64,000 nucleotides of DNA from a virus (taxonomy: Duplodnaviria > Caudoviricetes): IMG/VR virus record IMGVR_UViG_3300043177_000122, positions 64,001-128,000 of that record, one strand, 5' to 3'. The position numbers and the translations under genes are program-made. Positions 22,592 to 58,040 of this stretch are shown in pieces. Each line of letters begins with the position of its first letter. Position 1 is the first letter of the stretch. The notes under the pieces were generated by a model. It did no database searches, was not told where the DNA came from, and saw nothing but the letters and a program-made list of their open reading frames with translations.

Positions 22592-23209
22592 ATGAAATTA
22601 TTCAATACTATTCAAGAGCTGTGGGATTATTGCAGGTATTGTCCCATTTGTACAAGAAATTGTCGCGAGGTAATGGTTTCTGTAGGGCCAGACTTTTCTT
22701 TCATTCTAATTTCTCATTCTAAAAAAGATACAAATTTAGTTTTACAATGTATGTATAAAAGAAAGGGTGACATCTATAACGTTGACTATCAAATTAACTG
22801 TATAGATAATACCTTTCATATTACAGAGCCTAAAGTGGTTCAATTGGCAACTGAACTTGCCAAGCCAGAAAAAGTTAAAGAAGCCTATTTCTATTTCTTT
22901 ATTGAGGGTTTGTGTAATGAGTGTAATAGCTCGTCCACAAATAGTCAAGATTTAGAATTTGATTTGGAGGGCGGAACGATTTCTAATATGGGTCTAGAGC
23001 GTGAGAATTTTTATCTCTTTGAGACAGAAGAAAAATTCCATATCACTTCCATTCACGACCGCAATATAATGCTGGTCAGCCGCCTCTATCAAAACGGGGA
23101 AATTAGCTTCTCTGAGAGCAAGACGATAGAATTACCTATAGTTAAACTTGATCTTTCTGATCAAGCAAAAACTGTTAACAAGCTTAAAACTTTAATTCTG
23201 TTTAGTTGA
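22592..23209 (+). CDS. Hypothetical protein with CxxC pairs; C-terminal KLKTLILFS motif
   Basis: CRYCPIC, CNEC; 205-aa ORF. Confidence 0.55.
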   Translation: MKLFNTIQELWDYCRYCPICTRNCREVMVSVGPDFSFILISHSKKDTNLVLQCMYKRKGDIYNVDYQINCIDNTFHITEPKVVQLATELAKPEKVKEAYFYFFIEGLCNECNSSSTNSQDLEFDLEGGTISNMGLERENFYLFETEEKFHITSIHDRNIMLVSRLYQNGEISFSESKTIELPIVKLDLSDQAKTVNKLKTLILFS

Positions 23210-23218
23210 AAGGAAATC

Positions 23219-23422
23219 ATGTCTACTTTCAGTGATGCAAATCAGGTGCGCCTTTTGTTAAAAATGAAACTATCTGTGTACGCATGGTATAGCTCCAGTA
23301 CAGTCGTTTCTATAGACGATGGTTTTGGTGTTGTTATTGGCGTTAAGCAGATGGATAATTCTATTCGGAAACTAATCCCTCCGGTTGTCAATGACATTTC
23401 TGTGAAGGCAGAAGTAGAATGA
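23219..23422 (+). CDS. Hypothetical protein
   Basis: AAGGA RBS. Confidence 0.5.
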   Translation: MSTFSDANQVRLLLKMKLSVYAWYSSSTVVSIDDGFGVVIGVKQMDNSIRKLIPPVVNDISVKAEVE

Positions 23423-23462
23423 AAATCAAACGTATTTCAGATCAATTTGTTAGGAATTTAAG

Positions 23463-24134
23463 ATGCGACTTTGCCATATTAGCGATACTCACGGCAAATT
23501 TCCTTGTCTCTATGGGCGATATGATGCCGTTATCCATACGGGAGATCTATTCCCAAACAGCAATGCTGTAATGGTCGGTGATCGTAATGCAGAAATGTCG
23601 TACCAACTCAAATGGCTGCGTAATAGTATGGAAGAAATAAAGTCCTGGCTGCAAGACCATCCATTTTTGTATGTTCCTGGTAACCATGACTTTTTACCCT
23701 CCAGTCTAATGGAATTTGAAATGCGTAGCGCTGGACTAGAAGCTTTTGATTTAACAGACAAAACGCTTATGTTCAAAGGTGTAAATTTCTATGGTTTTCC
23801 ATACGTACCATATATTTCTGGTATGTGGAATTACGAGCGCCATTTTCCCGAAATGCAAAAAGAAGTTGACAAAATGGTAACAGTAATCAATAAGGAATTT
23901 GTTGATGTTATTGCTTGTCATGCTCCGCCCTATAAACAGCTTGACCTAACCATGGGTAATAAGGTTGTAGGTTGCCAGACAATGGCTACGGCGCTAGACT
24001 ATAAGATCAGCAAAGATATGATGCCTTCATATTTCTTGTGTGGTCATATCCATGAAGCTAATGGAATGTCTGTTCGCAATGGAATGATGATTAGCAATGC
24101 GGCGACCACGCGACATATTATAGAAATAATATAG
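23463..24134 (+). CDS. Calcineurin-like metallophosphoesterase (MPPED-like)
   Basis: HISDTHG, HTGDL, VPGNHD, HAPP, CGHIHE. Confidence 0.85.
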   Translation: MRLCHISDTHGKFPCLYGRYDAVIHTGDLFPNSNAVMVGDRNAEMSYQLKWLRNSMEEIKSWLQDHPFLYVPGNHDFLPSSLMEFEMRSAGLEAFDLTDKTLMFKGVNFYGFPYVPYISGMWNYERHFPEMQKEVDKMVTVINKEFVDVIACHAPPYKQLDLTMGNKVVGCQTMATALDYKISKDMMPSYFLCGHIHEANGMSVRNGMMISNAATTRHIIEII

Positions 24135-24292
24135 TAATAAAAGGTTGAATGTACAGTTTACGCTATGAATGCCAAGGAAGCTCGCAAAAAACTTACCTCT
24201 TCTAAACCCTGGAATAAGACAAATACAGAAGATGAAATTTCAAGAATTGAACTTGATAATTGGAAAATCCTTGTTTCTCCTAAGGAGATATC

Positions 24293-24919
24293 ATGAAGGT
24301 CAAACCTAAAGAAGTAATGGTGAATCTCCCGGTGGCTCTTCTATTTGATGAGCCCTGGGAGATCATCTCCTTTGCCGCTAATATCAACACAATTCTACAC
24401 GGCAAAGTCAAATTGAAAGTTGAAGAGCTGGGTACACTTGGTGGAAGGCATGTTGGTATTTTCTACCTTGATCGTAATGGTGAGTATCATCAGATTCGTG
24501 ATGAATTCGTTCGTTTGATTGAGCAAGAAGAGATTGTGAATCATTCACCTCCAGCTTTAAGTGAAGAGGATCGGATTGCTGAACAATATGATGAGAATTT
24601 TGGTGACAATAAGCTTTGTTTATGTGGTCACCCTTATTATCGTCATTTTGACACTTATGATCATATGTCAGCTATAGGTTGTAAGTATTGTTACAAATAT
24701 ACTGACAGGCACGTCCTTGATAAAGAGTGCCCATACTTTAAAGAGCAGAAAGATTCTACGGCAGATAAACATCCAAGAGAAGAAGACAAATATGCTCATG
24801 GTCTGTGCCCAGATTGTGATGAGTATTCTATGCTCCATCAAAAAGGAGAAGACCATTGCCGATGCGGTAGCGAAATAAATAATGGCGTTTGTGAGGTTTT
24901 AAGGAAGCAATATGCGTAA
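24293..24919 (+). CDS. Cys/His-rich hypothetical protein
   Basis: AAGGAG RBS; CLCGH.YYRH, GCKYC, CPDC, CRCG. Confidence 0.5.
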   Translation: MKVKPKEVMVNLPVALLFDEPWEIISFAANINTILHGKVKLKVEELGTLGGRHVGIFYLDRNGEYHQIRDEFVRLIEQEEIVNHSPPALSEEDRIAEQYDENFGDNKLCLCGHPYYRHFDTYDHMSAIGCKYCYKYTDRHVLDKECPYFKEQKDSTADKHPREEDKYAHGLCPDCDEYSMLHQKGEDHCRCGSEINNGVCEVLRKQYA

Positions 24920-25407
24920 ACATCAAGTTACTTTTTATAGTCCTGGAACTTTTGTATCTGAAGCGACCACTCGCGATATCGATAGCTGGGATACCACACC
25001 CAACTTATCTTCATGTCTGCCGTCAAATTGACCAAACCCTTAAAGACCTAAAGCCATAGAAAGTAATCTCGGGCATGGCTTTAGGAGTGGACCAATGGGC
25101 AGCTAACATTGCATATAAGCTGGGCATCCCTTTTATTGCCGCTGTGCCTTTTGAGGGCCAGGAGAAGGCGTGGCCCGAGCAATCCCAGAAAGTATTTAAT
25201 ATATTGATTGGAAAGGTCGCAGAGGTGGTTATCGTCAGCCCCGGAGGTTACACTGCTTACAAGATGCAAGTTCGTAACGAGTGGATGGTTGACAGGGCGG
25301 ATAAGGTCATTGCTATTTGGGATGGAACGCCCGGTGGAACTGGCAATTGTGTAAATTACGCCAAGTCTAAAAATAAGGAAATTATTTTTATTAACCCGCG
25401 CGGTTGA
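24912..25407 (+). pseudogene. Chimera: N-terminus of a small ORF joined to a YspA/SLOG (DUF1273-like) gene with an internal stop
   Basis: MRKHQVTFYSPGTF... then PTYLHVCRQIDQTLKDLKP*KVISGMALGVDQWAA (TAG 25057-25059), RNEWMVD, WDGTPGGT.NCV.YA. Confidence 0.72.
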
Positions 25408-25431
25408 CCCGACGAAAAACTGTGTTACATT
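25404..25431 (+). promoter_or_regulatory. sigma70-like promoter upstream of the Leu tRNA block
   Basis: TTGACC-N16-TACATT. Confidence 0.6.
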
Positions 25432-25469
25432 GGGCAACTCTAGCAATAAAGATATATAGTAACACTATT

Positions 25470-25555
25470 GCCGAAGTGGTGGAATGGCAGACACAGAAGT
25501 CTCAAAAACTTCCGGGCGCAAGCCCATGTGGGTTCGACTCCCACCGTTGGCACCA
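25470..25555 (+). tRNA. tRNA-Leu(CAA)
   Basis: GAAGT-CT-CAA-AA-ACTTC arm, long V arm, GTTCGA, CCA; A6:G67 mismatch. Confidence 0.93.
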
Positions 25556-25585
25556 ATTCATTTCTAATTTTGATTAAATAATATC

Positions 25586-26047: not shown

Positions 26048-26082
26048 TATCTAGTAATAATAGGTTATATACAGTACACGAT

Positions 26083-26166: not shown

Positions 26167-26195
26167 AAGTAAGATGAAGTATTCGAAAGTATTAC

Positions 26196-34418: not shown

Positions 34419-36098
34419 ATGAAATTTAGCAAAGTAATAGGTAAAATAGATCCAAAATTAGTATCTCAAGCAGAAGATAAGCTGTCTAAGGTATTTTTGG
34501 AATTAGCTGTTAGATATAACAATGAGCACGTATCATCCGGTATGGGCGGGGATCCATTAATCTTTAGCCTAATGTATCCGGTGGAACATGTTTGTACTTT
34601 GAATATTCCTACTGCAGCTACTGATGGTAAGAGATATTATTGGAACCCAAGGTTCATTCTTAAACTCTCACACAGAGGATTGAGAATTGTTTGCGCCCAT
34701 GAGGCATGGCATGCTATCTATATGCATCCGTCTCGTAGAGGCTCTAGAAATCCTGAGCTATGGAATATTGCTGTTGACTATATTGTTAATGGTACAGCAA
34801 TGGAAGATTTTAAAGCTCGCAAGAAAGATGCATCAGTAGAATTTACCAAGAATCTTGGCCGATACATGCCGTTTGATACTTTCTGTCAGTTTGTAAAAAA
34901 TCCATTTGCTAAGATTCCTGGCTTTGAAGATATTAGTCCTGGTATTGAAGACCCGAATGGAAATAACCCGTCTTGTAATCTTCCTGCTCCACAGGAAGAC
35001 CGCGAGTTAACTGTTCAAGAACGTAAAGAACTAGAGAAGCGTGAAAAGGGTGTTAGATTTTATTATGCCGATCCTAACCTCGATGAGGATATGAAGAAGC
35101 CTGAAAAAATCTATGATATTCTTTATGCTCTTTTACCAAAATGTTCCAAATGTGGTCGTTTAGGAGTTTATCATAAGCCCAATCAAAAGAAGGGGCAAAA
35201 AGGGCAGCAAGGGCAACAAAAGGGACAGGGCCAAGGCCAACAACCAAACCAGAATGGTCAGCCTGGACATGGTGAACACGATCATGGTGATGGACAAGCC
35301 TGTGACTGTCCAGACCATCAGGGTCAAGGGCAAGGTCAACCAAATCAGACTCAAGGACAAGGTAACGGGCCTTGCGATGAATGTGGTGGCGGCATTGATA
35401 TTTTTGGTTTAGGTGGCACCGTAGATGATCATATGGACTCCGAGGAGTCTGAGGAAAAGCTGGCCAAGCGAATTTCTGAAGCCATGGAAGCGGCAAAGAA
35501 AATGGCAGGCTATGTCCCCGCAGCCCTAGAGGAGGAACTTGGTAAATTGACTGCGCCCAGAATAACTTGGCAAGATATTATTCGCACTCGCCTCCTCAAA
35601 GCTCGTGCTGGTAGTGGGCGTAATGATTGGACTAGATTTAGAACTCGCCCAATGTTTAGTGGACTTATGGTTCCTAAGAGAAAAAATTACTATGCTCACT
35701 TTGGGTGCTTGTTAGATACTTCCGGATCTATGAGTAAAGACGATATGGCTTTCGGACTATCTCAGCTTCAATCATTGGACGAGCGCTCTGAAGGCACTAT
35801 TGTACCAGCCGACGCAACTATCTATTGGGACGAAGCAACTAAGATTAAGAAAGCTGTTGCTGAAGAAATCACTAAGGTTAAAGTCGTTGGTCGAGGCGGA
35901 ACTAAGTATGCTGAATTCTTTACTGATTATGAAAAAAATATTGGTCATTGTGATTTCTTAATTGTAATTACTGATGGTTTCTTATTAGATACTGACATAG
36001 CAGAAATGAAACATCCTGGTATCGACGTTATTTGGTTGATTACCAGCGGTAGTGTTTTTAATCCACCATTTGGTCGTGCTTTTGATTTACGTGCATAA
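34419..36098 (+). CDS. Metallopeptidase-vWA protein (DUF2201-like)
   Basis: TAATDG, AHEAWH (HExxH), WNIAVD, Gln/Gly linker, MIDAS LDTSGS, GRGGT, ITDG. Confidence 0.85.
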   Translation: MKFSKVIGKIDPKLVSQAEDKLSKVFLELAVRYNNEHVSSGMGGDPLIFSLMYPVEHVCTLNIPTAATDGKRYYWNPRFILKLSHRGLRIVCAHEAWHAIYMHPSRRGSRNPELWNIAVDYIVNGTAMEDFKARKKDASVEFTKNLGRYMPFDTFCQFVKNPFAKIPGFEDISPGIEDPNGNNPSCNLPAPQEDRELTVQERKELEKREKGVRFYYADPNLDEDMKKPEKIYDILYALLPKCSKCGRLGVYHKPNQKKGQKGQQGQQKGQGQGQQPNQNGQPGHGEHDHGDGQACDCPDHQGQGQGQPNQTQGQGNGPCDECGGGIDIFGLGGTVDDHMDSEESEEKLAKRISEAMEAAKKMAGYVPAALEEELGKLTAPRITWQDIIRTRLLKARAGSGRNDWTRFRTRPMFSGLMVPKRKNYYAHFGCLLDTSGSMSKDDMAFGLSQLQSLDERSEGTIVPADATIYWDEATKIKKAVAEEITKVKVVGRGGTKYAEFFTDYEKNIGHCDFLIVITDGFLLDTDIAEMKHPGIDVIWLITSGSVFNPPFGRAFDLRA

Positions 36099-36592
36099 TG
36101 AATAAAAAACATTGCATATCTGGCTGTGATCATGAGAGACACGAGTCTCATCGTGAAAAATTTGCTCAGGCTAAAAAAGCCGCACTAGAAGGCCAATATT
36201 ATTGGTGTGTAGCTAGATATGTAACAGATCGAAACATTTCTCCATCAGACGCTGATGATTTAGAGTTTTTCCAAGACTCTGTCTTTGAAAGCCCTTGGGG
36301 ACGTATTCATATCTTTTTTTATGAGTGGATGTTTAAAAAGTATTATCAGACAAATCCTGATTGGTACATACTCGTTTTTACAAGCTATTTAGGGTATTTA
36401 GATAAGATATCTCCACTCTTTTCACAAGATGCTTTTTATTTTGTATTTAAGCAAAATAATATTTACCTAATAGAAGGCTTGCTTAAAATAATGCCGTTTG
36501 AAATTAAGCTACGATTCATTAAAGCGGCAGAAAAATATCCAGATATGATCCATAAAGTTCCTAAACTTAAGTTGTATAACTTATTTTCCTGA
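36098..36592 (+). CDS. Hypothetical protein; C-terminal KLKLYNLFS motif
   Basis: Overlaps vWA stop; AT-rich ORF. Confidence 0.5.
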   Translation: MNKKHCISGCDHERHESHREKFAQAKKAALEGQYYWCVARYVTDRNISPSDADDLEFFQDSVFESPWGRIHIFFYEWMFKKYYQTNPDWYILVFTSYLGYLDKISPLFSQDAFYFVFKQNNIYLIEGLLKIMPFEIKLRFIKAAEKYPDMIHKVPKLKLYNLFS

Positions 36593-36599
36593 CGAACTA

Positions 36600-36628
36600 T
36601 TGACAGTCACGCTCGGCATGCTTATCTT
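36600..36628 (+). promoter_or_regulatory. sigma70-like promoter
   Basis: TTGACA-N17-TATCTT. Confidence 0.55.
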
Positions 36629-38420: not shown

Positions 38421-40514
38421 ATGAAACTGTCCGAAGCTAAGCCGTATTTCGAATCTTCTGGAGAGATGCAAGAACATTTCTTTTCAATTCAAGATCAGGG
38501 TATGTTGTTCGACATCTTGCGTAGCAAGATGTACTCGAATCCGATCCTAGCAATTTGTCGTGAGATTACTAGTAATGCTCGCGATGCACATCGTGAAATT
38601 GGAATGGCTGATAAGCCAATTCATATCCATTTGCCATCTGGATTGGAGCCTCATTACAAGATTAAAGATTTTGGTCCAGGTATTAGTCCAGATCGAATGG
38701 TTAATATTTTCATCAAATATACCGCCTCCACCAAGCGTGAAGATAATGTTCAGACTGGTGGATTTGGTCTAGGAGCCAAGACTCCATTTTCATACTCTGA
38801 TACATTTCAGGTAACCACCGTTCATGATGGAACTCGGTACAGTTATGCTTGTTTGATTGATGATACCAAGGTTGGTAAATTGGTTCTTCTAGATCAGAGA
38901 GCAACCACAGAACCTAATAGTACGGAAATCTCCATTCCAGTCAAGCCAGTTGATTATAATCTTTTTAGGCAGTATACAGAGCAAGCATGTCGTCATTGGG
39001 ATGTTAAGCCAGTCATTACTGGCGGCAACATTGATTGGCAAAAGCTCAATAAGATTGCAGAGGGTCCTGGTTGGGCAATCACTGCCACTCATGATTATAA
39101 TCGTCATGCTAAGTTAGTCATTGACGGTATTGAGTACCCACTTCCCCTTGATGACCTTCGTAAGTATGCTGACCCCAAACTAATTGATTCTTGTCGAGGC
39201 GACTTCATTATGTACTTTGGCGTCGGTGAGCTTAGCTTATCTGCCACCCGAGAAAACATTTTCTTGGATAAACCAACCCATGATAAAATCAAAGCCAGAA
39301 TTGATCAAATCACTACAGAGTTTAGAAAAACAATTTCTGATAAGATTGATACGTTTCCGAATTTGTGGGCGGCTAACGTCTACTATTGTAAAGAACTGAC
39401 ATCTGTATTCAATAATTTACATTTCTTGGGTAAGTTGTACTGGAAGACCCATGAATTGCATAATGGGTATGTGAACGTTAAATGTGGACTGTTCGAATTT
39501 ACTAAAGGGAAGTATTCTCGTCGTCACGGTAATGACCCTAATAAACTAACTCGCTCTGGTCATGCTATTGGACCTCGCTCGCTTCACTTTGAAGAGAATG
39601 TAGAGTTGTGGCTGAATGACTTGCCTATCAAAGAGCCAACTCCTCGACATGTCAAAAAGGCTTTCGAGGATGACCCTAATTTGAAACGCATTCTTGTAAT
39701 TTGTCCCACTGACAAATATACTGAAGCGGATTTGAATAAGGATATTCATCTTGATGAGATGAAGCCAAAGAGGTTGTCGTCCATTACTAAGGCATCTGGC
39801 CGAGCCTATACTCCTCCGGCTTCTAGGTTGCTTGTTTTTAAATTTGATCTGACTGCTAGCTCTTTCCGCCAAGTGAGTTACGATAACATGGAGGAAGATA
39901 CAAACGACAAAGTTTTGTGTCTTTTAAGTCGTGATCAATCGTATGGGCGTTTGGCTACGCTTAGTAATAAACAAAATTTAAGCGTGTCAGCTTTCAAGTC
40001 TCTTTTGGAACAAAATCCCAAAATTTCTTTCTATGGAGTGGATAAAGAAACTGACCCCAAACGTCTAGAAGAAGAATTCAATGATTTCGAGACTTTGGAT
40101 AATTTTATTGATAAAAAGGTTTTCAATAATAAGTCAATCAATTATGTCGAGATTAAGTTCGCGCAACAACATACTTATTGTGTAGATGAGCGAATGCTTA
40201 AGCATTATGACGTATTAGCTCCGCTTATCACTGACAAGAGTAGTTCATTCCTAGTTCGATTAGAACTTCACAAAGTTATTAAAAAACTTAGTGGGAATGA
40301 CCGAAGCTTGTTAGATATCTACGAAGCGGCTAAGGGCGAGATTAAAGAAGTTGCTCTGAAACAATTCGTGAAAGATAACCCTAACTGGGACATTGAGAGT
40401 ATCAACCGAGCCTACGAAAAGAAGTATCCATTGTTGACTGCAATCAACACATATAATATGCATCAAGTACTTGATCATGTGGCTCATTATGTAAATATGG
40501 TCGATAAGATTTAA
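38421..40514 (+). CDS. rIIA: rIIA-like protein (N-terminal GHKL/Hsp90-like ATPase)
   Basis: LRSKMYSNP..AICREI.SNARDAH, IKDFGPGI, STK, GGFGLG.K.PF.YSD.F. Confidence 0.87.
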   Translation: MKLSEAKPYFESSGEMQEHFFSIQDQGMLFDILRSKMYSNPILAICREITSNARDAHREIGMADKPIHIHLPSGLEPHYKIKDFGPGISPDRMVNIFIKYTASTKREDNVQTGGFGLGAKTPFSYSDTFQVTTVHDGTRYSYACLIDDTKVGKLVLLDQRATTEPNSTEISIPVKPVDYNLFRQYTEQACRHWDVKPVITGGNIDWQKLNKIAEGPGWAITATHDYNRHAKLVIDGIEYPLPLDDLRKYADPKLIDSCRGDFIMYFGVGELSLSATRENIFLDKPTHDKIKARIDQITTEFRKTISDKIDTFPNLWAANVYYCKELTSVFNNLHFLGKLYWKTHELHNGYVNVKCGLFEFTKGKYSRRHGNDPNKLTRSGHAIGPRSLHFEENVELWLNDLPIKEPTPRHVKKAFEDDPNLKRILVICPTDKYTEADLNKDIHLDEMKPKRLSSITKASGRAYTPPASRLLVFKFDLTASSFRQVSYDNMEEDTNDKVLCLLSRDQSYGRLATLSNKQNLSVSAFKSLLEQNPKISFYGVDKETDPKRLEEEFNDFETLDNFIDKKVFNNKSINYVEIKFAQQHTYCVDERMLKHYDVLAPLITDKSSSFLVRLELHKVIKKLSGNDRSLLDIYEAAKGEIKEVALKQFVKDNPNWDIESINRAYEKKYPLLTAINTYNMHQVLDHVAHYVNMVDKI

Positions 40515-40526
40515 TAGGAGATAGAA

Positions 40527-41462
40527 ATGCAAAAGAGAGTTAATTGGGCGATTACCGATAATAACGTTTCGGTAAATTATGAAGGCGAATCACACATTGT
40601 GCCTCGTTCGGATGCTTTGGCCGATCGTTTGATCAAAGCAATTAAAGAGGGTCGTTTACAGGAGATTCCTGCTCTTGTTTCAGTCGCCAAACGTATCGAG
40701 ATTTTCTCGAAAGGTAACTTCAAGGTTGAGAATGGCCAGGTTTTGGTTAATGGTGTGGCCGTACCTCATGCGTTAAGCAACAAAATCATTCGTTTCTCGA
40801 ATGATGGTCTTCCATTTCAGCCATTGGTTAAGTTTGCGGAGAATCTACAGAAGAATCCTTCTTTCCGAGCTGTAAACGAATTGTTTACATTCTTGGAGAA
40901 GAATGACCACCCTATCACAGAAAACGGAAACTTCATTGCTTATAAGCGTGTTCGTTCTACGTTCAAGGATATCCACTCCAATACTATGGATAATTCTGTA
41001 GGTAAGACTGTGGAAATTCCTCGCAATCAAGTAGATGAAGACTCTAGCCGTACTTGTAGTTATGGTCTACATGTTGCTAATTGGGACTATGCTCACTTGC
41101 ATTTTGCTAGTTCAGACTCTGCCTCTGACGTTATGTTAGAAGTTGAAGTCAATCCTGCTGATGTTGTTGCTATCCCTATCGATTACAACAACTCCAAAAT
41201 GCGCGTTTGCAAGTACAAGGTTCTAGGAGTTGTCACGACTCCATACGAGCCAAGCCGGATGCTTCGAGTGGTTGATGAGTCATATGACCCTTCCAGTGAA
41301 TATGAGGATCTCTCAGAAGATGAGGATTGCGAATATTGTGGCGAAGAGGTATATGATGGTGACCGCCTCTGTACTGAATGTAAGTACGATGAGGGATCTG
41401 ATGAAGACGAGGATGATGTCGAAGAAGATCGTTATCCTTACGAAGACGAAATTGAGGGCTAA
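40527..41462 (+). CDS. rIIB: rIIB-like protein with acidic tail
   Basis: AYKRV, DIHS.T.DNS.G, PRNQVDED..RTCSYGLHV, VNPADVV.IP.DY...KMRVCKY. Confidence 0.87.
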   Translation: MQKRVNWAITDNNVSVNYEGESHIVPRSDALADRLIKAIKEGRLQEIPALVSVAKRIEIFSKGNFKVENGQVLVNGVAVPHALSNKIIRFSNDGLPFQPLVKFAENLQKNPSFRAVNELFTFLEKNDHPITENGNFIAYKRVRSTFKDIHSNTMDNSVGKTVEIPRNQVDEDSSRTCSYGLHVANWDYAHLHFASSDSASDVMLEVEVNPADVVAIPIDYNNSKMRVCKYKVLGVVTTPYEPSRMLRVVDESYDPSSEYEDLSEDEDCEYCGEEVYDGDRLCTECKYDEGSDEDEDDVEEDRYPYEDEIEG

Positions 41463-42610: not shown

Positions 42611-43639
42611 ATGTTTATACTTGATAAAGTAGACCTTCAATTCAGGCTGATGGCCGATAAATTATTCTTTACTGATAATACAGATTTAGATTTATCCAAT
42701 TTCAAATCTTTATTTGAGAGTAATGAGTTTCATTATAATTACTTACTAGATCGATTTCATCGTAGCTTAGAGATATTTTGGGATGAAAATTTTTGGATTG
42801 ATCGTTTGGATACGCTTCTATCTTTGAATTCCAAACGACTTGATTCTGAAGTTGGTCAAATTCTACTATCTAGATTTAAAAGGATGATTGATATTCGTAT
42901 CAATCCAACTCCGAAAATAGATAGTGAATTTGTCCAATTTAATGCTTGGACCAAAGTTCGTGTCGCTAGAAAAGAAGAAATTATCTCCATCAGGGATTTT
43001 TTTACTAACCTAGTATATACTGTTAAAGTTGGTAAGCTAACTAATATCATTGGTCATTTTATTCCTCATTTGTTCCAAAATATGGAGGAGTATCTTTGTT
43101 TATTGGGCAAGAGGGTGGCTGAATCTGCTCGTAGCTTTGAAGTACTTCAGCAATTGGAGGGCCAAGGCATAACAATTGATAAAGCTCCCCTTTTTAAACT
43201 ATCTAAAAACTTGCTCTTAAAAAGAGCTTTGAATAAACCAAATAAGCGTTCACTTTTTGTTTTAATGAGCGATCCCGCTATTATGGATCATCTCAAATCA
43301 GAGTATAGCTCAAATGATCGTGGTAGGCTTATTGCCATTATTAAATCTTGTGAGCACAAAGATATTGAAGAGAATCACTTACGAAATGTGAAAAATCTAT
43401 TAGAGTTAGATCCTTCAATTGCTGATGAGTTATTTGTTATTTATGCTAACAAATTATGGGCTCGTGGCACAGGTAATCGTGGAGCTAATGTGAAAAAACT
43501 TGTTAGACTTTGCAAAACATTTCCTATTTTCTCTCCAAAAAAAGCATTAGTTTATCTTTCTACTACAGGCAAAATGGCTGACATCAAAACTCTGATAACG
43601 GCATTTCCTGAACTAAAAACATTGGCCCCATTCATATGA
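42611..43639 (+). CDS. Hypothetical helical protein; C-terminal ELKTLAPFI motif
   Basis: 342-aa AT-rich ORF. Confidence 0.55.
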   Translation: MFILDKVDLQFRLMADKLFFTDNTDLDLSNFKSLFESNEFHYNYLLDRFHRSLEIFWDENFWIDRLDTLLSLNSKRLDSEVGQILLSRFKRMIDIRINPTPKIDSEFVQFNAWTKVRVARKEEIISIRDFFTNLVYTVKVGKLTNIIGHFIPHLFQNMEEYLCLLGKRVAESARSFEVLQQLEGQGITIDKAPLFKLSKNLLLKRALNKPNKRSLFVLMSDPAIMDHLKSEYSSNDRGRLIAIIKSCEHKDIEENHLRNVKNLLELDPSIADELFVIYANKLWARGTGNRGANVKKLVRLCKTFPIFSPKKALVYLSTTGKMADIKTLITAFPELKTLAPFI

Positions 43640-43830
43640 TTTGGAATGAACTACCATATGAGCTACAACAAAAAGTTATCAATAGAATTGTAACATTATT
43701 AGAACATGAAGACGATGATTTGATGCAAGATGGTCTGATTGCCGCAGTTCATGAATTGGAAGTGTGGAGTAATACTCCTTGTGAAATAATGGGAGAATAT
43801 GGTTTCCCAGAAAAGGATCCCTTCAAATGA
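43636..43830 (+). CDS. Small hypothetical protein
   Basis: ATGA overlaps on both sides. Confidence 0.45.
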   Translation: MIWNELPYELQQKVINRIVTLLEHEDDDLMQDGLIAAVHELEVWSNTPCEIMGEYGFPEKDPFK

Positions 43831-44162
43831 TATTAGTAACAGAGAAGGCCGCTCTTAAAATCAAAGATATTTCAGATTCGGAAGGAATTGGACACTATAA
43901 TGTTCGCATTCGAGTTGTAGGTGGTGGTTGTGCCGGATTCACTCACGATATGTACTTTGAAGAGAAGATAAATGACATGGATGAAGTAGTAGAATTAACC
44001 GACTTCTACGGCACTATTAAAGTGGTCGTAGATCCAGTTTCTTTTCAATATTTAGAAAATGTAACAATAGATTGGGAAGATAGAGATTTTGCGTCAGGCT
44101 TTAGATTTATTAATCCTAATGTTACAGGCTCTTGCGGTTGTGGTAGCTCTGTGTCGTTTTAA
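43827..44162 (+). CDS. A-type Fe-S carrier (IscA/ErpA/HesB) #1
   Basis: VVGGGCAG, F.F.NPN...SCGCGSS. Confidence 0.9.
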   Translation: MILVTEKAALKIKDISDSEGIGHYNVRIRVVGGGCAGFTHDMYFEEKINDMDEVVELTDFYGTIKVVVDPVSFQYLENVTIDWEDRDFASGFRFINPNVTGSCGCGSSVSF

Positions 44163-46253: not shown

Positions 46254-46601
46254 ATGGAAACCGAGAAAACTAATCACATTTCTATCTCATTTGCTGCTGC
46301 TGAACAAGTTAAGTTGCAACTTGAAAAGCGAGCAACTCCAGAGTCTTATATAAGGCTTGGAATTAAGGGTGGTGGTTGTTCTGGATTTTCATACGTACTT
46401 AGATTCGAGGATGATTCTCCAAAAGACCGCGATGTTGTGTTTGAACAATATGGTGTTAAAATTGTAGTTGATAAAAAGAGCTTAGTTTATCTTAACGGAG
46501 CCACACTAGATTGGGAGAAGACACTGATGAAACAAGGTTTCAAATTTGTTAATCCAAACGAAAAAGCTAGTTGTGGTTGCGGTCACTCTTTTACAGTCTA
46601 A
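46254..46601 (+). CDS. A-type Fe-S carrier (IscA/HesB) #2
   Basis: IKGGGCSG, GFKF.NPN...SCGCGHSF. Confidence 0.92.
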   Translation: METEKTNHISISFAAAEQVKLQLEKRATPESYIRLGIKGGGCSGFSYVLRFEDDSPKDRDVVFEQYGVKIVVDKKSLVYLNGATLDWEKTLMKQGFKFVNPNEKASCGCGHSFTV

Positions 46602-46841: not shown

Positions 46842-47765
46842 ATGAGTAAATTTGAAGATCTTCTTTATCAATTAGAAGAGGATAGTATAACTAAGAAGCA
46901 AATAGATCGTTTTGTATCATTCTTTAAGAATGACAATCTCTATAAGCCATTATTTGATAGTTACGTTTCACGGCGGCTACACAATAATATCCACCCTGAA
47001 CGACTATTAAATATGGCTTACAATATGGAAAAACACGAAACTACAAAATATCTTAGTGAGGCAATCAATGACCGGATAGCTGATAGTATAATTCTTAAAG
47101 ACGAGAATTATGATCAGTTTTATTTTATGTATCGACACGATACTCGTGATGAGTATCACATATTCAAAACTTTATTATCTAAACTAGGAGATCGTTTAGA
47201 TGATAATGTTATTAAAGTAATAAACACAATTGCTCCTATTATTAAACGAGACAAATTTGATTTGATGATTGAAGCTTTGGGGACTTTTGAATTTGGAAAT
47301 TTTCGAACCATACTATTTATGGATCGACTTTCGGCTGAAGAGCAATATTTATTAGTATCCAAAGCTTTAGAGAAAGAAAGTATTGCCGGTCTTCGTATGC
47401 TTAGATTGTCTAACAATAACCTAAAAAACGAAATACAGAAAAAAGTTGATAACGATGGAGACAAAAGTATTTTTGCCACAGCACTTAAGAATACTCTCAT
47501 TCCAATTGATACGTTAGAGGGCAATGAGTTTATAAATTTTGTTATTTCTATGTATGGAGATAAGATGCCTGCTACATTAGGTAGATTATATGTGCGGGCA
47601 GAAAAAGAGAATAGATATGAATATCTAATTACTCTTGGGAAACATAAAAATAAGAAAGATGTATTACGGACTATTTGTAAGGCCAATGATAAAAAGCTGA
47701 TTGATCGTTTCTTTTCCATCTATAAGAATAGTCCAGAGGTCAAACATCTAGTTCCTTTCTTGTGA
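46842..47765 (+). CDS. Hypothetical helical protein; C-terminal EVKHLVPFL motif
   Basis: 307-aa AT-rich ORF. Confidence 0.55.
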   Translation: MSKFEDLLYQLEEDSITKKQIDRFVSFFKNDNLYKPLFDSYVSRRLHNNIHPERLLNMAYNMEKHETTKYLSEAINDRIADSIILKDENYDQFYFMYRHDTRDEYHIFKTLLSKLGDRLDDNVIKVINTIAPIIKRDKFDLMIEALGTFEFGNFRTILFMDRLSAEEQYLLVSKALEKESIAGLRMLRLSNNNLKNEIQKKVDNDGDKSIFATALKNTLIPIDTLEGNEFINFVISMYGDKMPATLGRLYVRAEKENRYEYLITLGKHKNKKDVLRTICKANDKKLIDRFFSIYKNSPEVKHLVPFL

Positions 47766-47804: not shown

Positions 47805-48911
47805 ATGACAAATGCGTTAAACTTACAAGAATTAGATCAAGAGCAGGCGCTCAATCTTACTAAATTCTTTATCCAATCAAAACATAATGTCTTTTTATTT
47901 GGAAGGCGTGGTGTTGGCAAGACTGATATTGCAATTCAAGCTGCTAAAGAATGTGGCTATAAAGTTAATTATATTAACCTAAGTGTAATAGAAAGACCAG
48001 ATTTAGCGGGCTATCCAGATATGAATGCGCCAGGTGATGTGATTAATTTCAAATCGCCTTATTTCTTACCCAAACTATTAGATGGTTATGAATCGGATAG
48101 TGTAATTCTTTTTGATGAAGTAGACAAGGCACAACCAGAAGTAACGGCTCCATTGTTGGAAATTCTACTATTCAAAAAAATCAATGGTATGCCAATCAAC
48201 GCAACCTCTTGTATATTAACCGGCAATCTAGCAAATGAAGGCGCCTATTCCAATGAGATAAGTTCAGCACTCTTGGATCGTGGCGCCAAATTCATTTTGC
48301 AATTTAATTTTGAGAAATGGGTTGATTGGGCCAAAGCACATAATGTACATGATCTTATTTTAGGGTTTTTACGCAGCGATCCTGAGTTTGCATGTGGGAA
48401 AGAAGAAAATACACTTTACGCCTCACCATCTCCAAGAAGTTGGACATGGGCATCAGATGCGCTACTGCGTGCCAAAGACCTCAAAGTGTCGGATATAGAC
48501 TCCGTCACCCAAATCATTTCTGGATATGTTGGAAGTGAGGCCGGGCTGAGATTCAAAATATGGTATGAACATTATCGTAAATTTGAACCTCACGTTCATT
48601 CTTTAATTGACCGTAGCGAAATGTCTCTCAATTATAGCGACTTAATGCCCACTGAAAAAGTAGTCTTTGTAGTGTCGGCATGTTATTACACAAAACAACG
48701 TGTCTTCAAAGACAGATCTAAGAATAGGTTTGCATATCTAGAGAACCTATGTAACTTCTTTCAACAATGTAAGGTAGAGCCTGAAGTTCAAATTATGGGG
48801 CTTCATAACTCTTTTGATTTTGATATGATTAGAGAACACAATTTGTATAAGTGTAAACCCTTTTTCGATCTCTTTACTAAGCTGAGTGAAAACGTTACGT
48901 TCAAGAAGTAA
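47805..48911 (+). CDS. MoxR-like AAA+ ATPase (paralog 2)
   Basis: GRRGVGKT, NLSVIERPDLAGYPD, LFDEVDKA, LTGN, LLDR, PSPRSW. Confidence 0.85.
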   Translation: MTNALNLQELDQEQALNLTKFFIQSKHNVFLFGRRGVGKTDIAIQAAKECGYKVNYINLSVIERPDLAGYPDMNAPGDVINFKSPYFLPKLLDGYESDSVILFDEVDKAQPEVTAPLLEILLFKKINGMPINATSCILTGNLANEGAYSNEISSALLDRGAKFILQFNFEKWVDWAKAHNVHDLILGFLRSDPEFACGKEENTLYASPSPRSWTWASDALLRAKDLKVSDIDSVTQIISGYVGSEAGLRFKIWYEHYRKFEPHVHSLIDRSEMSLNYSDLMPTEKVVFVVSACYYTKQRVFKDRSKNRFAYLENLCNFFQQCKVEPEVQIMGLHNSFDFDMIREHNLYKCKPFFDLFTKLSENVTFKK

Positions 48912-54075: not shown

Positions 54076-54728
54076 ATAGGTGTGAGCGAGAATTTCTCGT
54101 ATTTCCGGGCCAGATAAATTGTAGCTTCGTTATAGAGATAATGGTAAATCTTTTTAATATCATCCTTTTTTCATAGCTGAGATAATATGGCCATTATCTT
54201 GTGTATAATGATGTAATTCTACTTTAAGCTCCTCTTCTATAATAGATTTGATTTTCATTAGAAATGAAAGCGAAACACTATACATACTAAATATTTTAGA
54301 CTTTTCATCACTGCGTATGTAGATGCAACCATCGCCATCAAAGAAGCCGCGAATAAAATCTCGTCTAAATTCTTTTGGAAGACTATTTGGATATTGTAAA
54401 CTGAAACTTTTATTTGGAATACATCCCCATTTATTAAGCTGTTGACATAAATATCGGCTTGCTATGCGAAGTGAGACCATCTTACTTTTATTTCGCGTTC
54501 TATAAGAAATAGGATGATTGGCACATAGATGCTTTTTCATAAGTAACAAATGTTCGCTATCATTTGCAGATAACTCTATTGTTAATTCGTCTCCCGTGTT
54601 ACAGGCGTCTGCCATACAAAAGCCCAACCAATACGCTTTAATTGAATTTTCGATTTCATCGAAGAACGATTCATCAAACGAATATTTTTTAGTGGCGTAT
54701 TTAGAACATTATTAATTCTGGCACACAT
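54069..54728 (-). pseudogene. LAGLIDADG homing endonuclease, frameshifted
   Basis: SFFDEIENSIKAYWLGFCMAD, FIRGFFDGDG; +1 in run 54166-54171 cuts off KIYHYLYNEATIYLARKYEKF. Confidence 0.78.
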
Positions 54729-54785
54729 CTAATTGACCGGATGCCATTATATAACATTTCTGTTTCACAAGGAGTATAAAGAGCT

Positions 54786-55046
54786 ATGGGCGCTATTGTA
54801 TTAGGTCTAATCTTCCTAATGGTAATTTGGGTTCTTTGGAAGATGTTTATTGATGGGTGGCTTTTTAAAGCTATTCTATTTTTCGCTGGGTGGGTCGGAC
54901 TATACGTGCTTCTAGCAGTTTATGTTGATGGAGCAAAGAATGTCGCATTCACCATGAGTAATGGGTTTTCTATGAGCTGGGCTGCGGTAGTTCCAACCAT
55001 TATTTGTTTCCTTTGTTTATTGTGTACGAAAGTTTCAAGTGAATAA
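54786..55046 (+). CDS. Small membrane protein
   Basis: Three hydrophobic segments; AAGGAG upstream. Confidence 0.5.
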   Translation: MGAIVLGLIFLMVIWVLWKMFIDGWLFKAILFFAGWVGLYVLLAVYVDGAKNVAFTMSNGFSMSWAAVVPTIICFLCLLCTKVSSE

Positions 55047-55237
55047 TGTATTGCATGAATTGTGGTGAGATTTGGCATGATTGCATTTGTATTCCTTGGT
55101 GTTGGGATCACGATTCGGTAGAGCCTTGTCAAACTTGCCAGTTTCTTAGAAAAGAAAAATTAGAAAAGGAAGCTATGTTAGCTCCTTTCTTAGTGCCTTG
55201 GTATAAACACATAATAAAGTATTTAACAGGAAAATAG
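55046..55237 (+). CDS. Small Cys-rich protein
   Basis: C..C...C.C...C..H....C..C. Confidence 0.4.
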   Translation: MYCMNCGEIWHDCICIPWCWDHDSVEPCQTCQFLRKEKLEKEAMLAPFLVPWYKHIIKYLTGK

Positions 55238-55239
55238 CC

Positions 55240-55452
55240 ATGAATAAAATGTTTACAGACAATGGATTTATTTCTGAAGAAGGTAAAAAGGTTTTACAAC
55301 CACTACATGATGGCTTAATGGAAGTTGTTCGTGCTCCCGAAGTGCAAGCTATGTCTGTACAAGAGCTGCGAACTTTACAGGCTAACTTGGCTAAACTGAT
55401 TGGCGAAGTTATGTCTGGAGAGATTTTTATTCGTAATAAGCAAGGAAAGTAA
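55240..55452 (+). CDS. Hypothetical protein
   Basis: AGGA RBS. Confidence 0.5.
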   Translation: MNKMFTDNGFISEEGKKVLQPLHDGLMEVVRAPEVQAMSVQELRTLQANLAKLIGEVMSGEIFIRNKQGK

Positions 55453-55453
55453 C

Positions 55454-56698
55454 ATGAAGCTTTTAGTCCAGGAATATCTGGAAACTCATTCATTTGGAGA
55501 TTTGGCACGTGAACATGGAGTATATGCGTCATTCTCTAAATCTGGCCACAAGTTTTCATTAAACTATGATCAGATTGAAGCAAAGGAATCTAATCCATTA
55601 GCACAACAATGCCGCGGATTGATCTTATCTTCTGTTGATGGTAAACCATATGCATGGAATCCAACACCAGATGGTAAATTGTCCCGCGATGATATTAAAC
55701 CAGGACCAACCAAAATTCTCGCTTATCCGATGAATAGATTTTTCAATCATGGTCAGGGTGCAGCTGCCGACATTGATTGGTCTGATCCTAAATTGGCCGT
55801 TCTAGAAAAATTGGATGGAACCCTATGTATTGTTTATTGGGATGAATTCGTTAACAAATGGTGTGTGGCAACTCGTTCTGTGCCTGAGGCAGATCTACTA
55901 ATGGATAATGGTATCTATACTTTTCGAACTCTGTTTGAAAAAGCTTTTGTGGATACTACCGGATATGAATTCGATGTGTTTACTAGGTACTTAGCAAAGG
56001 AATGCACCTACTGTTTTGAATTAACTACGCCATACAACCGTATCGTAGTTGAATATAAAACCAATGGTGTGGCTTTACTGGCCATTAGAAATCTCGTTAC
56101 TCTAAACGAAATCGCAACGGATCACCCATATTGGGACACTCTGCCAAGGAGCCTTCCATTCGTACAGGCATACACGTACACGTCTGTGGAAGATTTGGTT
56201 AATTGGGTATCGTCATTGAATCCAATTGAACACGAAGGTGTTGTTGTTCGAGACTCAAAATTCAATCGAATTAAAGTCAAGAATGCGGCCTATGTAGCTT
56301 ATAATAAACTTCATGATCGTCTAGGTTCATCAGAACGTAACTGTATGGAATTTGTTCTTTTAGAGAAGGATGATGATGTTGCTCCATTCATGCCCCCAGA
56401 AATTGTAGAGAATATGCAAAAACTGAAAAAAGGTTTACAAAAATCCTTTATGAAGTATGATAGTGTTTATAATTTAATTACACTAAACTTGAAGGCTTCA
56501 GGTCTAGAAGGTAATAAGAAAGAGTTTGCTCTTCTTGTTACAAAACATAAAGACTTATGGCATGCACCTTTCTTCGCAATGTGGGATGGTAAAGCATCAT
56601 CTTTGAAGGATTTTATTCAACAAAATCGCAAAGATGGCACCTGGGGTGATGGTTTTTTGGATAGACTTTTAGATTTATCAAAAAAATCTTTACCGTGA
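55454..56698 (+). CDS. RNA ligase, T4 Rnl1-like
   Basis: CRGLIL, RFFN, motif I EKLDG, FELT.P.NRIVV, EGVVV, IKVKN. Confidence 0.85.
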   Translation: MKLLVQEYLETHSFGDLAREHGVYASFSKSGHKFSLNYDQIEAKESNPLAQQCRGLILSSVDGKPYAWNPTPDGKLSRDDIKPGPTKILAYPMNRFFNHGQGAAADIDWSDPKLAVLEKLDGTLCIVYWDEFVNKWCVATRSVPEADLLMDNGIYTFRTLFEKAFVDTTGYEFDVFTRYLAKECTYCFELTTPYNRIVVEYKTNGVALLAIRNLVTLNEIATDHPYWDTLPRSLPFVQAYTYTSVEDLVNWVSSLNPIEHEGVVVRDSKFNRIKVKNAAYVAYNKLHDRLGSSERNCMEFVLLEKDDDVAPFMPPEIVENMQKLKKGLQKSFMKYDSVYNLITLNLKASGLEGNKKEFALLVTKHKDLWHAPFFAMWDGKASSLKDFIQQNRKDGTWGDGFLDRLLDLSKKSLP

Positions 56699-56719
56699 TA
56701 TATACGCAAATTGGAGGGG

Positions 56720-56748
56720 TTGACGCCATCGTCGGTCGACGTTACCCT
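56720..56748 (+). promoter_or_regulatory. Possible promoter of hsp20
   Basis: TTGACG-N17-TACCCT. Confidence 0.4.
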
Positions 56749-56798
56749 TCTAAATGACCTTCCATGGTCTTAACCTTTTTATTTTTTCGGAGGTAATT

Positions 56799-57251
56799 AT
56801 GTTATCACTTTGGAATCCATTTATTCCTGTTGTTAGGGATCGTTCTGATAGTAGAATTTCTACTAAGAACTATTTTGATCGTTTGTTTGAAGATACTTTT
56901 ACTACTATGACTCAAGACCTGTTTAATGGTCATTTGACAGGGTTAGGCATTGAGCAAAAGAAAAATGAAGATGGGTCACTTGCTGTATCCATTGACATAC
57001 CTGGCATTAAAGAAGAGGACATCACTATTGAGGTTGAAGACAATATAGTGCGTGTTAAAGGTGAACGTAAAACCGCTACCTCTTCTTATGCAGTTAATAA
57101 GAGCATTCTTATTCCAGAAGGATATTCTTCTGACGATGTAAAAGCAGAGCTTGTTGATGGTGTCTTATCTCTAACTTTGGCAGCCAAACAGTTACCACAA
57201 AAAGAGATAAAAAAGATAGCTATAAGCTCATCTCCTAAACAACTGAAGTAA
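56799..57251 (+). CDS. Small heat-shock protein Hsp20
   Basis: GGAGG RBS; IDIPGIKEEDI.IEV....V.GE, A.L.DGVL.LTL. Confidence 0.9.
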   Translation: MLSLWNPFIPVVRDRSDSRISTKNYFDRLFEDTFTTMTQDLFNGHLTGLGIEQKKNEDGSLAVSIDIPGIKEEDITIEVEDNIVRVKGERKTATSSYAVNKSILIPEGYSSDDVKAELVDGVLSLTLAAKQLPQKEIKKIAISSSPKQLK

Positions 57252-57260
57252 TATAGGGAA

Positions 57261-57295
57261 AGAGGTCGGTTGATTTAACCGGCCTTTTTGTTTTT
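57261..57295 (+). terminator. Rho-independent terminator
   Basis: AGGTCGGTT-GATTT-AACCGGCCT followed by TTTTGTTTTT. Confidence 0.78.
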
Positions 57296-57323
57296 GTACT
57301 AGTAATTACGATATATACTATGT

Positions 57324-58040
57324 ATGAACAAATACATGTTTGAGAGTGATTACAGTGGAGATTCTCTACGATGGCTTACAAAAATAACTGATACGAATCT
57401 TCATCTTAATGAATATCAAAAGCTTGAAGATTTTCAAAACGAAATCATCAAGAATAAAGATTCAGCGCTAGCGTATTTTTTTGCTGCAGAGTTTGGTAAA
57501 TATAAACCGCATAGAATGCAGCAAGTAATTCTGGATAAAAAAGATCCTAAATATGCTTTTGCATTTGCGCAGTCAATACCAAATGCAGATATTAAAGCGC
57601 TACAAAATGTGGTAGTAGAGTCTAAGAAAATTAAGTATGTTACTAAATTTGCTTGTTTTATCAAAGCTGCTGATAGAAAGTTATTAGAAGACTTGATTAT
57701 CAAATCAAAAAATGTCAAGTATGCTCACATGTATCTTAAACATGTAAAAGGTGCTGATGTTAAAAAGTTCAAGCAAATTATTCTAAGTTCAGGAAAACCC
57801 AGATATCTATTCGAATTAGCAAAACATCTTACATCAGATTCTGAGCTTGAAATGGTGGAAGATTTGATTATCGCTTCACAATCATTTACATATATGAGAT
57901 TGTTTGCTGAGAAAATAAAAAAAGCTAACGTTGATAAAATTGAACAAGCGGTACTAGCAACTGACAATGGGCCTGAGATTAAGAAATTTGCCAAATATGT
58001 TCGTAAGTCTAAGATGAAACAATTCTTATTGGTAATGTAA
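57324..58040 (+). CDS. 28-aa tandem-repeat helical protein; C-terminal KMKQFLLVM motif
   Basis: At least five repeats of KY...FA..I..AD...L...I..SK. Confidence 0.65.
   Translation: MNKYMFESDYSGDSLRWLTKITDTNLHLNEYQKLEDFQNEIIKNKDSALAYFFAAEFGKYKPHRMQQVILDKKDPKYAFAFAQSIPNADIKALQNVVVESKKIKYVTKFACFIKAADRKLLEDLIIKSKNVKYAHMYLKHVKGADVKKFKQIILSSGKPRYLFELAKHLTSDSELEMVEDLIIASQSFTYMRLFAEKIKKANVDKIEQAVLATDNGPEIKKFAKYVRKSKMKQFLLVM

Follow-up and report, generated by a model that had tools for sequence, protein, structure and literature searches.

Short terminal motifs that are shared by otherwise unrelated phage proteins represent a known kind of phenomenon. The internal proteins of phage T4 are small, variable and unrelated apart from their tag (IPII and IPIII start with MKTYQEFIAE, and IPI with MKTFKEFT), and they are encoded outside the head module. 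Encapsulin cargo-loading peptides, in turn, are C-terminal tags of about ten residues that occur on unrelated cargo proteins and bind to the interior surface of a shell with the HK97 fold, and they are the closest known precedent for a C-terminal capsid address. A fixed distance to the C-terminus is the hallmark of motifs that are read together with it, such as the HbYX motif (hydrophobic-Tyr-X-COOH), PDZ ligands, SSB tails and the T4 clamp epitopes. The latter have been described as hydrophobic and acidic, being presented on a variable flexible linker (PMC2988020). In this study, a nine-residue C-terminal ending (the tail) was analyzed that is shared by five orphan proteins (P1 to P5) encoded in bases 64001-128000 of the 358,993-bp IMG/VR virus record IMGVR_UViG_3300043177_000122 (G000); this stretch of 64,000 bp is referred to as the window. 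G000 represents an uncultured freshwater huge phage, with a CheckV completeness of 83% and a GC content of approximately 38%. A preliminary description of the window had regarded the tail as an address tag, which is a possible reading here.

Translation of the five open reading frames (ORFs) reproduced exactly the endings that had been written down before (Table 1). Genes of the whole G000 record were determined by a greedy, ORF-based procedure, yielding 484 genes that cover 93% of the sequence; the choice of the start codon is irrelevant to the tail counts, because the C-terminus is defined by the stop codon. Related IMG/VR records were reached by means of a homologue search with the 342-amino-acid (aa) protein P3, and four of them were taken whole, namely G002 (480,838 bp), G003 (268,344 bp), G005 (204,190 bp) and, as the most divergent one, G004 (327,423 bp). 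The regular expression derived earlier from the five tails matched six C-termini in G000, these being the five window proteins and a 107-aa zinc-ribbon protein encoded outside the window. The sixth match therefore independently confirms a pattern that had been derived from the remaining five. Internally, none of 107,487 positions was matched, the expectation from composition being 0.002-0.003, and the ending is thus far above chance genome-wide.

Since the expression had been fitted post hoc to five sequences, a pattern-free comparison of tails with tails was added. Four pairs of tails shared at least six of nine residues, compared to 0.43-0.49 pairs in the controls (internal 9-mers and column shuffle), and none of 200 replicates reached four pairs. 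Within the related genomes, the expression matched seven C-termini in G002, three in G003 and one each in G004 and G005, with no internal match in approximately 510,000 positions. Applying a position-specific scoring matrix (PSSM) built from six tails, scores of at least 10 bits were obtained for 6, 21, 4 and 2 C-termini in four genomes (0.02-0.06 expected), the value of 21 originating from G002, where 0.06 were expected. A looser form of the ending, [LYF]..F., occurred 110 times at the extreme end in the five genomes, and only 11-32 times when it was required one to seven residues further inward; likewise, [LIVM]..[LYF]..F. terminated 42 BLAST families at offset 0, versus 2-5 at offsets 1-8. 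No excess of this ending was detected in the first 100 kb of phage T4, which was treated likewise.

Homologues of four of the five proteins were found to keep the tail and the exact position of the stop down to 34-40% identity. All 54 homologues of P1 (34-93% identity) end with [KR][LI]KT[LY]ILFS, and 30 of the 31 others of P4 (38-93% identity) end with VKHL.PF[LMI], the exception being a truncated sequence of 239 aa; the gene located at the P4 position in G005 ends with PEYKSLLPLL. For P3, 65 homologues and approximately 60 full-length cluster representatives obtained from an exhaustive profile search all end with L-x-x-L-x-x-[FLY]-x. P5 features the weakest match to the motif among the five, with Val instead of Phe at -2, and its orthologues in all five records end with KM[KR][QK]F[LF]LV., whereas for P2 one orthologue was found, in G002, with the identical tail. 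Full-length homologues extending past the F-x end were not encountered among the 54 sequences for P1, the 31 for P4 and the approximately 125 for P3. No other 9-mer of P1 is as strongly conserved as the tail, which takes rank 1 of 197 and precedes the zinc ribbon; in P3, the tail ranks 39 of 334, i.e., within the top 12%. As a control, 119 single-copy families without the tail, present in four to five genomes, were evaluated; 39 of these keep the register of their end, and their C-terminal 9-mer has a median conservation percentile of 0.78. The corresponding percentiles of the tail families are 0.00, 0.06, 0.11 and 0.17 for four families, which keep the register, and 0.47 for one family.

The lysine at -7, described before as invariant, is indeed constant in the five proteins, but is replaced by R, E, Q or N in some homologues, and distant homologues of P3 vary at this position. 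The last residue varies across tails as well (S, Q, I, L, M, W and V). In G004, Glu was found at -7 in the orthologues of both P1 (RVETLLVFG) and P3 (ELEGLVAFV). Judging from these two cases, the paired change from Lys to Glu is suggestive of a shared partner; no acidic-to-basic reversal matching it stood out among 79 families present in the five genomes.

At the conserved positions of the tail, synonymous codons are used freely (AAA and AAG for Lys in a ratio of 18:17, TTC and TTT for Phe in a ratio of 18:15, and six codons for Leu), and the spacing relative to the following gene ranges between an ATGA overlap (-4) and approximately +60 nt. Because both codons and spacing vary, the constraint acts on the peptide and not on a DNA signal, and the C-terminal motif is under protein-level selection in this clade of huge freshwater phages. 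That the pattern is due to chance, or a by-product of a ribosome-binding site, promoter or terminator at gene ends, is extremely improbable. The post hoc origin of the expression would agree with chance, and a somewhat enriched use of TGA stops in tail genes (50-80% versus 35-48%), together with the many array genes overlapping by ATGA, would agree with a DNA signal; however, the independent sixth match, the matches in four other genomes, the lack of internal ones and the retention of the ending over hundreds of homologues argue against the former, as do codon use and spacing against the latter.

Among the five proteins, BLASTP revealed no similarity except tail-to-tail. Likewise, hhalign comparisons of eleven tail families yielded no domain-level similarity, and the best local alignments of several pairs were those of the tails (for example, residues 97-106 versus 195-204 for P0 and P1, and 333-342 versus 298-307 for P3 and P4). 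Searches in Pfam and PHROGs returned nothing for P1 to P5 and nothing useful for another 20 proteins with the tail that are encoded in the related records, and no match was obtained by tblastn against GenBank phages using P1, P3 and one G002 paralogue. The RRXRR endonuclease family and a glutamine synthetase, being the only clear Pfam matches among tail-bearing proteins, were taken as chance carriers.

The AlphaFold2 model of P1, computed with an alignment of homologues (predicted local distance difference test, pLDDT, 91; predicted TM-score, pTM, 0.85), consists of an N-terminal helix, a zinc ribbon, two beta-meander sheets and a C-terminal helix (residues 191-204) that holds the tail (pLDDT 91-96). 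Comparison of this model by Foldseek, VIA-align and in the ESM Atlas yielded no match exceeding the background (best Z 5.7), and one to a PUR-repeat-like beta-beta-beta-beta-alpha arrangement (Z 5.6) is regarded as a lead only. An internal segment of P1, PEKVKEAYFYF, appeared tail-like by eye, but this likeness is unsupported, as no internal duplication was detected by hhalign of the two P1 halves. P3 was modelled as an all-alpha solenoid (pLDDT 91, pTM 0.75), in which the tail forms the last short helix (residues 333-341) and, in alignments with designed solenoids, takes the place of the last solenoid helix; a unit resembling the tail, ADIKTLITAFP, is located ahead of it. Its structure matches were generic HEAT, MIF4G and designed solenoids running to residue 342, with Z values of up to 9.2, which is under the noise level quoted for helical proteins. 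The look-alikes of P2 in the ESM Atlas are weak, TPR/ankyrin-like helical repeats, while those of P5 carry HEAT/LRV; moreover, approximately seven internal helix-hairpin repeats of 29 aa were recognized by eye in P5 (e.g., ADIKALQNVVVES and ADVKKFKQIILSS), the tail being the second helix of the last repeat. Based on models or look-alikes, P2, P3 and P5 look like alpha-helical repeat proteins, and P4 is suspected to be one, too. The motif hence occurs on two or more unrelated folds, represented by small zinc-ribbon/beta proteins and HEAT-like solenoids, and the earlier statement that fold types differ is borne out by the models of P1 and P3. The further statement that the five proteins are unrelated stands insofar as similarity is restricted to the tails; however, P1 belongs to a large zinc-ribbon paralogue superfamily with the tail as a family trait, and P2, P3 and P5 share the helical-repeat appearance.

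Two expanded superfamilies of tail-bearing proteins were distinguished. The zinc-ribbon group, which includes P1 and the 107-aa protein, comprises proteins of 100-210 aa that feature CxxC...CxxC in an N-terminal ribbon and end with [EK]K[LIV][KR][TLI][YL]x[LIV]F[S]; approximately 25 such small genes are arranged in tandem in G002, most of them overlapping by ATGA. Membership in this array type applies to P1 and the 107-aa protein, and not to P2 to P5. The second group consists of small alpha/beta proteins ending with [KR]-h-x-x-L-K-A-F-[WLM]. One BLAST family of 18 members, 16 of them in G004, ends with a variant of the tail, YHDQVMDYL[IV]F[ML]. A hidden Markov model (HMM) lacking the tail united just 31 zinc-ribbon proteins despite their evident common architecture. 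As BLAST and the tail-less HMM unite only part of these fast-evolving proteins, the number of 42 families overstates their independence. After removal of all zinc-ribbon-like and group-two-like proteins, 9 families versus 2-4 remained, corresponding to an approximately threefold excess, and 4 versus 0-2 when K/R was required at -7, these four being P2, P3, P4 and a family of 158 aa that is absent from G000.

Several side observations concern these groups. The 16 paralogues of G004 are scattered, measure approximately 110 aa, and are related by BLAST to single genes of G002 and G003 ending with RINNLKAFW and RYDSLKAFW. The tandem array of G002 is broken by a 364-aa gene featuring GGQ and SPF motifs by eye, as known from class-I release factors (RF2-like). 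In the region immediately preceding the window, a number of small tail genes start directly after sequences resembling tRNA 3' ends and are thus interspersed among the tRNAs and small RNAs encoded there. A homodimer prediction for the 107-aa protein, performed without an alignment, did not recover the fold itself.

Our preferred reading is that the tail represents a terminus-anchored docking element for one common partner, external binding being inferred, and we assign a probability of roughly 45% to it. The motif, hydrophobic(-8)-[K/R](-7)-x-[L/Y/F](-5)-x-x-F(-2)-x(-1)-COOH, corresponds to the last turns of a C-terminal alpha-helix and lies at a fixed distance to the carboxyl end. One common partner, either of the phage or of the host, would read the hydrophobic ridge (-8, -5 and -2) beside the free C-terminus, and the tail would thereby connect a whole set of variable orphan proteins to a single machine, in a manner similar to the T4 clamp epitopes, HbYX tails or encapsulin cargo peptides. 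Docking is favoured by the excess at the ends only, the protein-level selection, the unusual conservation of the end, the fixed register, the presence of one tail on different folds, the constant solvent-side residues and the excess that remains outside the expanded superfamilies; the most weighty point appears to be that, in hundreds of homologous sequences, the motif lies at a constant distance from the free C-terminus. Nevertheless, a number of observations weigh against this reading. In the AlphaFold2 models of P1 and P3, the tail is an ordered helix continuing the fold, and it is not preceded by a floppy linker, although docking peptides usually have one. The tails of P3 and P5 resemble their own internal repeat helices, and the residue at the very end of the tail depends on the family (S, I/V, or W/L/M). 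As remarked before, no recognisable enzyme carries the tail according to Pfam and PHROGs, and no partner was found among the hub types searched in up to five records. Finally, most of the genome-wide excess stems from the two expanded superfamilies, and the residual excess is significant (P approximately 0.005 by Poisson, in our own arithmetic), but modest.

Quite plausible, even if not the reading we favour, is an explanation without a common partner, in which the tail represents the closing helix or hydrophobic plug of a few fast-evolving superfamilies, the remaining sequence of which has diverged so far that one superfamily takes on the appearance of many unrelated families, and the likeness between zinc-ribbon and solenoid tails is due to convergence of amphipathic terminal helices. 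Such a role would agree with the integration of the ordered terminal helix into the P1 and P3 folds, the tail of P3 and P5 as an extra copy of an internal repeat helix, the family-specific last residue and the lack of tail-bearing enzymes, as well as with the small number of zinc-ribbon proteins united by the tail-less HMM, the tail variant ending the family of 18, and the shrinkage of the excess upon removal of the superfamilies. On the other hand, a closing helix would not normally hold the stop in register, as is observed here across over 100 homologues at 34-50% identity, and two thirds of the control families shift their end within five genomes. Moreover, P1 shows no variation at the solvent-side residues K(-7), T(-6) and S(-1), the K-containing pattern is common to four families not belonging to the superfamilies, versus approximately 0.75 expected, and no such ending was found in the T4 sequence analyzed. 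Docking also includes two special cases, each of which we consider unlikely. The tail may serve as a degron or adaptor tether for a tandem ClpP pair, or for MoxR ATPases with the metallopeptidase-vWA protein. Non-polar C-termini are classic bacterial degradation signals, and each of the five records retains the two ClpP genes in tandem, the two MoxR paralogues and the DUF2201 peptidase-vWA gene. P2, the start of which overlaps the stop of the DUF2201 gene, is translationally coupled to it, the DUF2201 gene in turn following a MoxR-like ATPase gene, and P4 is located 40 nt upstream of the second MoxR-like ATPase gene and precedes it in three records, so that the MoxR-vWA system does lie beside two tail genes, as had been noted. 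However, this adjacency applies to just two of the five proteins and is weak evidence, because P2 is missing from three records that retain MoxR1-vWA. In addition, the tail is unlike ssrA-type or MuA-type ClpX signals, and an ordered, possibly packed helix, as modelled, would make a poor degron. This MoxR/vWA-peptidase pair and ClpP have been described from jumbo phages, with a suggested role in virion assembly (Iyer et al. 2021, PMC7824862).

The second special case, in which the tail would target proteins to the capsid or core and thus correspond, at the C-terminus, to the T4 capsid-targeting sequence or to encapsulin cargo peptides, is similarly doubtful, and so is the more specific proposal that a C-terminal packaging address directs a diversifying library of small zinc-ribbon and solenoid proteins to the capsid, from which they would be injected together with the DNA. 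The T4 sequence had been given correctly in the preliminary description, and the starts of the T4 internal proteins resemble the [LIV]-K-T-[YL]-x-x-F of the zinc-ribbon tails, the internal proteins being likewise small, variable and encoded outside the head module. Moreover, one tail-like protein, with a weak SLT domain and the ending FLLKFI, is encoded in the head block of G000. However, it represents the weakest match, its G004 orthologue has four extra residues, and all other tail genes are located in the non-structural part, among tRNA, RNA-repair and translation genes. No protease site was seen ahead of the tail, and the likeness to the T4 sequence amounts to five positions of an amphipathic helix that were spotted post hoc. 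Enrichment, conservation and genomic context of the supposed address tag hold, whereas capsid loading, compartment import and recognition by MoxR-vWA are still guesses, because no partner was found, the genes lie mostly outside the virion block, the tail is modelled as an ordered helix and the enrichment is driven by two superfamilies. A membrane-targeting helix of the MinD/FtsA type was set aside, since the last five residues are hydrophobic all round and not amphipathic, and since a linker is lacking; a nascent-peptide termination signal was set aside in view of the varying spacing and stop codons and the presence of the tail on long, conserved proteins.

Searches for candidate hubs gave the following results. 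No match to the sliding-clamp families PF02916, PF09116, PF00712 and PF02767 was obtained in up to five records, a divergent clamp or a host clamp being possible. Likewise, T4 gp45, gp44, gp62 and gp43 had no match by phmmer, and the replisome is not T4-like. The proteasome family PF00227 had no match in G000, nor had S41 protease and PDZ_2 domains in the five records. Outside the window, G000 encodes the two adjacent ClpP proteins (Table 1). The product of a small gene preceding them ends like a DksA/TraR zinc finger. A homologue of the tubulin/FtsZ family was identified in two of the five records.

The window represents a non-structural region rich in genes for translation and RNA repair. 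It encodes PheRS, two class-I aminoacyl-tRNA synthetases of the W/Y type, an NAD-dependent DNA ligase, a PARP-like protein, PNKP, an RNA ligase, an RlaP nucleotidyltransferase, an adenylosuccinate synthetase, a UvrD helicase with an intein and a GHKL ATPase, in addition to two MoxR-like AAA ATPases and the DUF2201 metallopeptidase-vWA protein. A blastn search with 6 kb yielded a single, irrelevant match. The 311-aa orphan following the GHKL-type ATPase has a strongly acidic C-terminal tail, which is kept in G003 (...EEEEEEYPYEDEIEGE) and may be another terminal motif. P3 and P4 are flanked by small paralogues, copies of which are present in all related records and which have the look of IscA/HesB-type iron-sulfur assembly proteins by eye. 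Just past the P2 stop, a sigma-70-like -35 word was noticed, with CCTTGACA at the equivalent position of G002. The word CCTTGAC is overrepresented ahead of non-structural genes (7 versus 0) and is possibly the early promoter word of the clade; from k-mers in front of the tail genes, compared with respect to early and late promoter words, no practicable division of these genes into classes emerged.

Table 1. Coordinates of the tail-bearing proteins P1 to P5 and of further features in the window, in G000 and in related records; for P1 to P5, the last base is that of the stop codon.
Feature	Numbering	Coordinates	Strand	Length (aa)	Description
P1	window	22592-23209	+	205	zinc-ribbon/beta-rich orphan; tail KLKTLILFS encoded at 23180-23206
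P2	window	36098-36592	+	164	orphan; tail KLKLYNLFS encoded at 36563-36589
P3	window	42611-43639	+	342	HEAT-like alpha-solenoid orphan; tail ELKTLAPFI encoded at 43610-43636
P4	window	46842-47765	+	307	orphan; tail EVKHLVPFL encoded at 47736-47762
P5	window	57324-58040	+	238	helical-repeat orphan (HEAT/LRV-like); tail KMKQFLLVM encoded at 58011-58037
UvrD/Rep-type helicase	window	2509-4998	+	829	probably intein-containing; residues 284-587 match intein splicing domain
PARP-like protein	window	17568-19064	+	498	WGR, PARP regulatory and PARP catalytic domains; eukaryote-like PARP architecture
DUF2201 metallopeptidase-vWA gene	window	34419-36098			stop overlapped by P2 start
-35-like word	window	36593-36610			sigma-70-like TTGACA
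GHKL-type ATPase, then orphan	window	38421-41462	+	697 and 311	orphan ending with ...YPYEDEIEG
Small paralogue flanking P3 and P4	window	43827-44162	+		ending with ...SCGCGSSVSF
Small paralogue flanking P3 and P4	window	46254-46601	+		ending with ...SCGCGHSFTV
Second MoxR-like ATPase	window	47805-48911			downstream of P4
Small tail genes after tRNA-like ends	G000	30207-57572			just upstream of the window
Zinc-ribbon protein	G000	54311-54634		107	tail KLKTYVLFQ
Two adjacent ClpP genes	G000	153909-155098			Pfam CLP_protease, 167 and 172 bits
Tail-like head-block protein	G000	211181-212197			weak SLT domain
Tubulin/FtsZ-family homologue	G000	308260-308748			approximately 463-aa open frame; Pfam Tubulin, 60 bits
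Tubulin/FtsZ-family homologue	G002	333917-334405			as in G000
Zinc-ribbon gene array (L040)	G002	403718-417156			approximately 25 genes
Paralogues of the 16-copy family (examples)	G004	133725-134057, 178773-179105			
RRXRR-family (HNH-like) protein, multi-copy	G004	65388-66503, 111164-112210, 114719-115762, 313148-314194			probably mobile endonuclease; dispersed across the genome

The genes of huge phages are mostly orphans, and a shared ending present on 3-6% of the proteins of this clade provides a handle on them. If the tail is a docking tag, identification of the hub would assign dozens of orphans to one pathway, be it packaging, proteolysis or remodelling, and the tag would be portable for engineering. 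As a packaging address, it would point to a general route by which huge phages deliver early host-takeover or anti-defence proteins. If, instead, the tail is no more than the terminal helix of a fold, two large and undescribed superfamilies of small proteins can nonetheless be recognized by it, and shared tails on seemingly unrelated ORFans may be the last trace of common descent.

Compared to known systems, the tail shares with the T4 capsid-targeting sequence that a terminal tag of ten residues is the sole common part of small, variable proteins, and M-K-T-[YF]-x-E-F resembles [LIV]-K-T-[YL]-x-x-F; the T4 tag, however, is N-terminal and cut by the prohead protease, whereas the tail is located at the extreme C-terminus, is locked to the stop and has no visible cleavage motif. 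The likeness to encapsulin cargo peptides is one of form only, both being C-terminal tags of about ten residues and the sole part common to unrelated families. The encapsulin consensus is a Gly/Ser-rich sequence of the L-x-I-G-S-L-K type following a flexible linker, and differs from the tail in both respects. In the HbYX motif of proteasome activators, the penultimate aromatic residue is invariant and the fixed distance to the carboxylate is essential; the tail features hydrophobic-Phe-X instead (L-F-S, P-F-I or A-F-W), with Tyr being rare, and its carriers are neither ATPases nor activators. ClpXP recognizes ssrA-like LAA-COOH or MuA-like basic RRKKAI signals, whereas the tails end with [LVIPA]-F-x, even though Clp protease genes are present. 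Furthermore, PDZ ligands need a conserved hydrophobic last residue, which varies in the tail. With the clamp epitopes of T4 gp43, gp33 and gp55, the tail has in common a short hydrophobic end on unrelated proteins of one phage, which in T4 is interchangeable and binds to one hub (PMC2988020), and gp43 ends with SLDFLFG, i.e., with Leu-Phe-x-COOH as in ...LILFS. In contrast to these epitopes, the tail is basic (K at -9 and -7), lies in a predicted ordered helix and is carried by orphans and not by replication or transcription proteins, and neither a sliding clamp nor a T4-like replisome was detected in the five records. As it departs from defining features of each, the tail motif probably does not belong to the classes of the T4 clamp epitopes, the T4 capsid-targeting sequence, the encapsulin peptides or HbYX. 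Its carriers, likened by architecture only, recall the lineage-specific zinc-ribbon expansions of jumbo phages, of which Bacillus phage G contains approximately 35 copies (Iyer et al. 2021, PMC7824862): in both cases, small ORFans with an N-terminal zinc ribbon form multi-copy arrays, while in the phages studied here the same tail also terminates HEAT-like solenoids.

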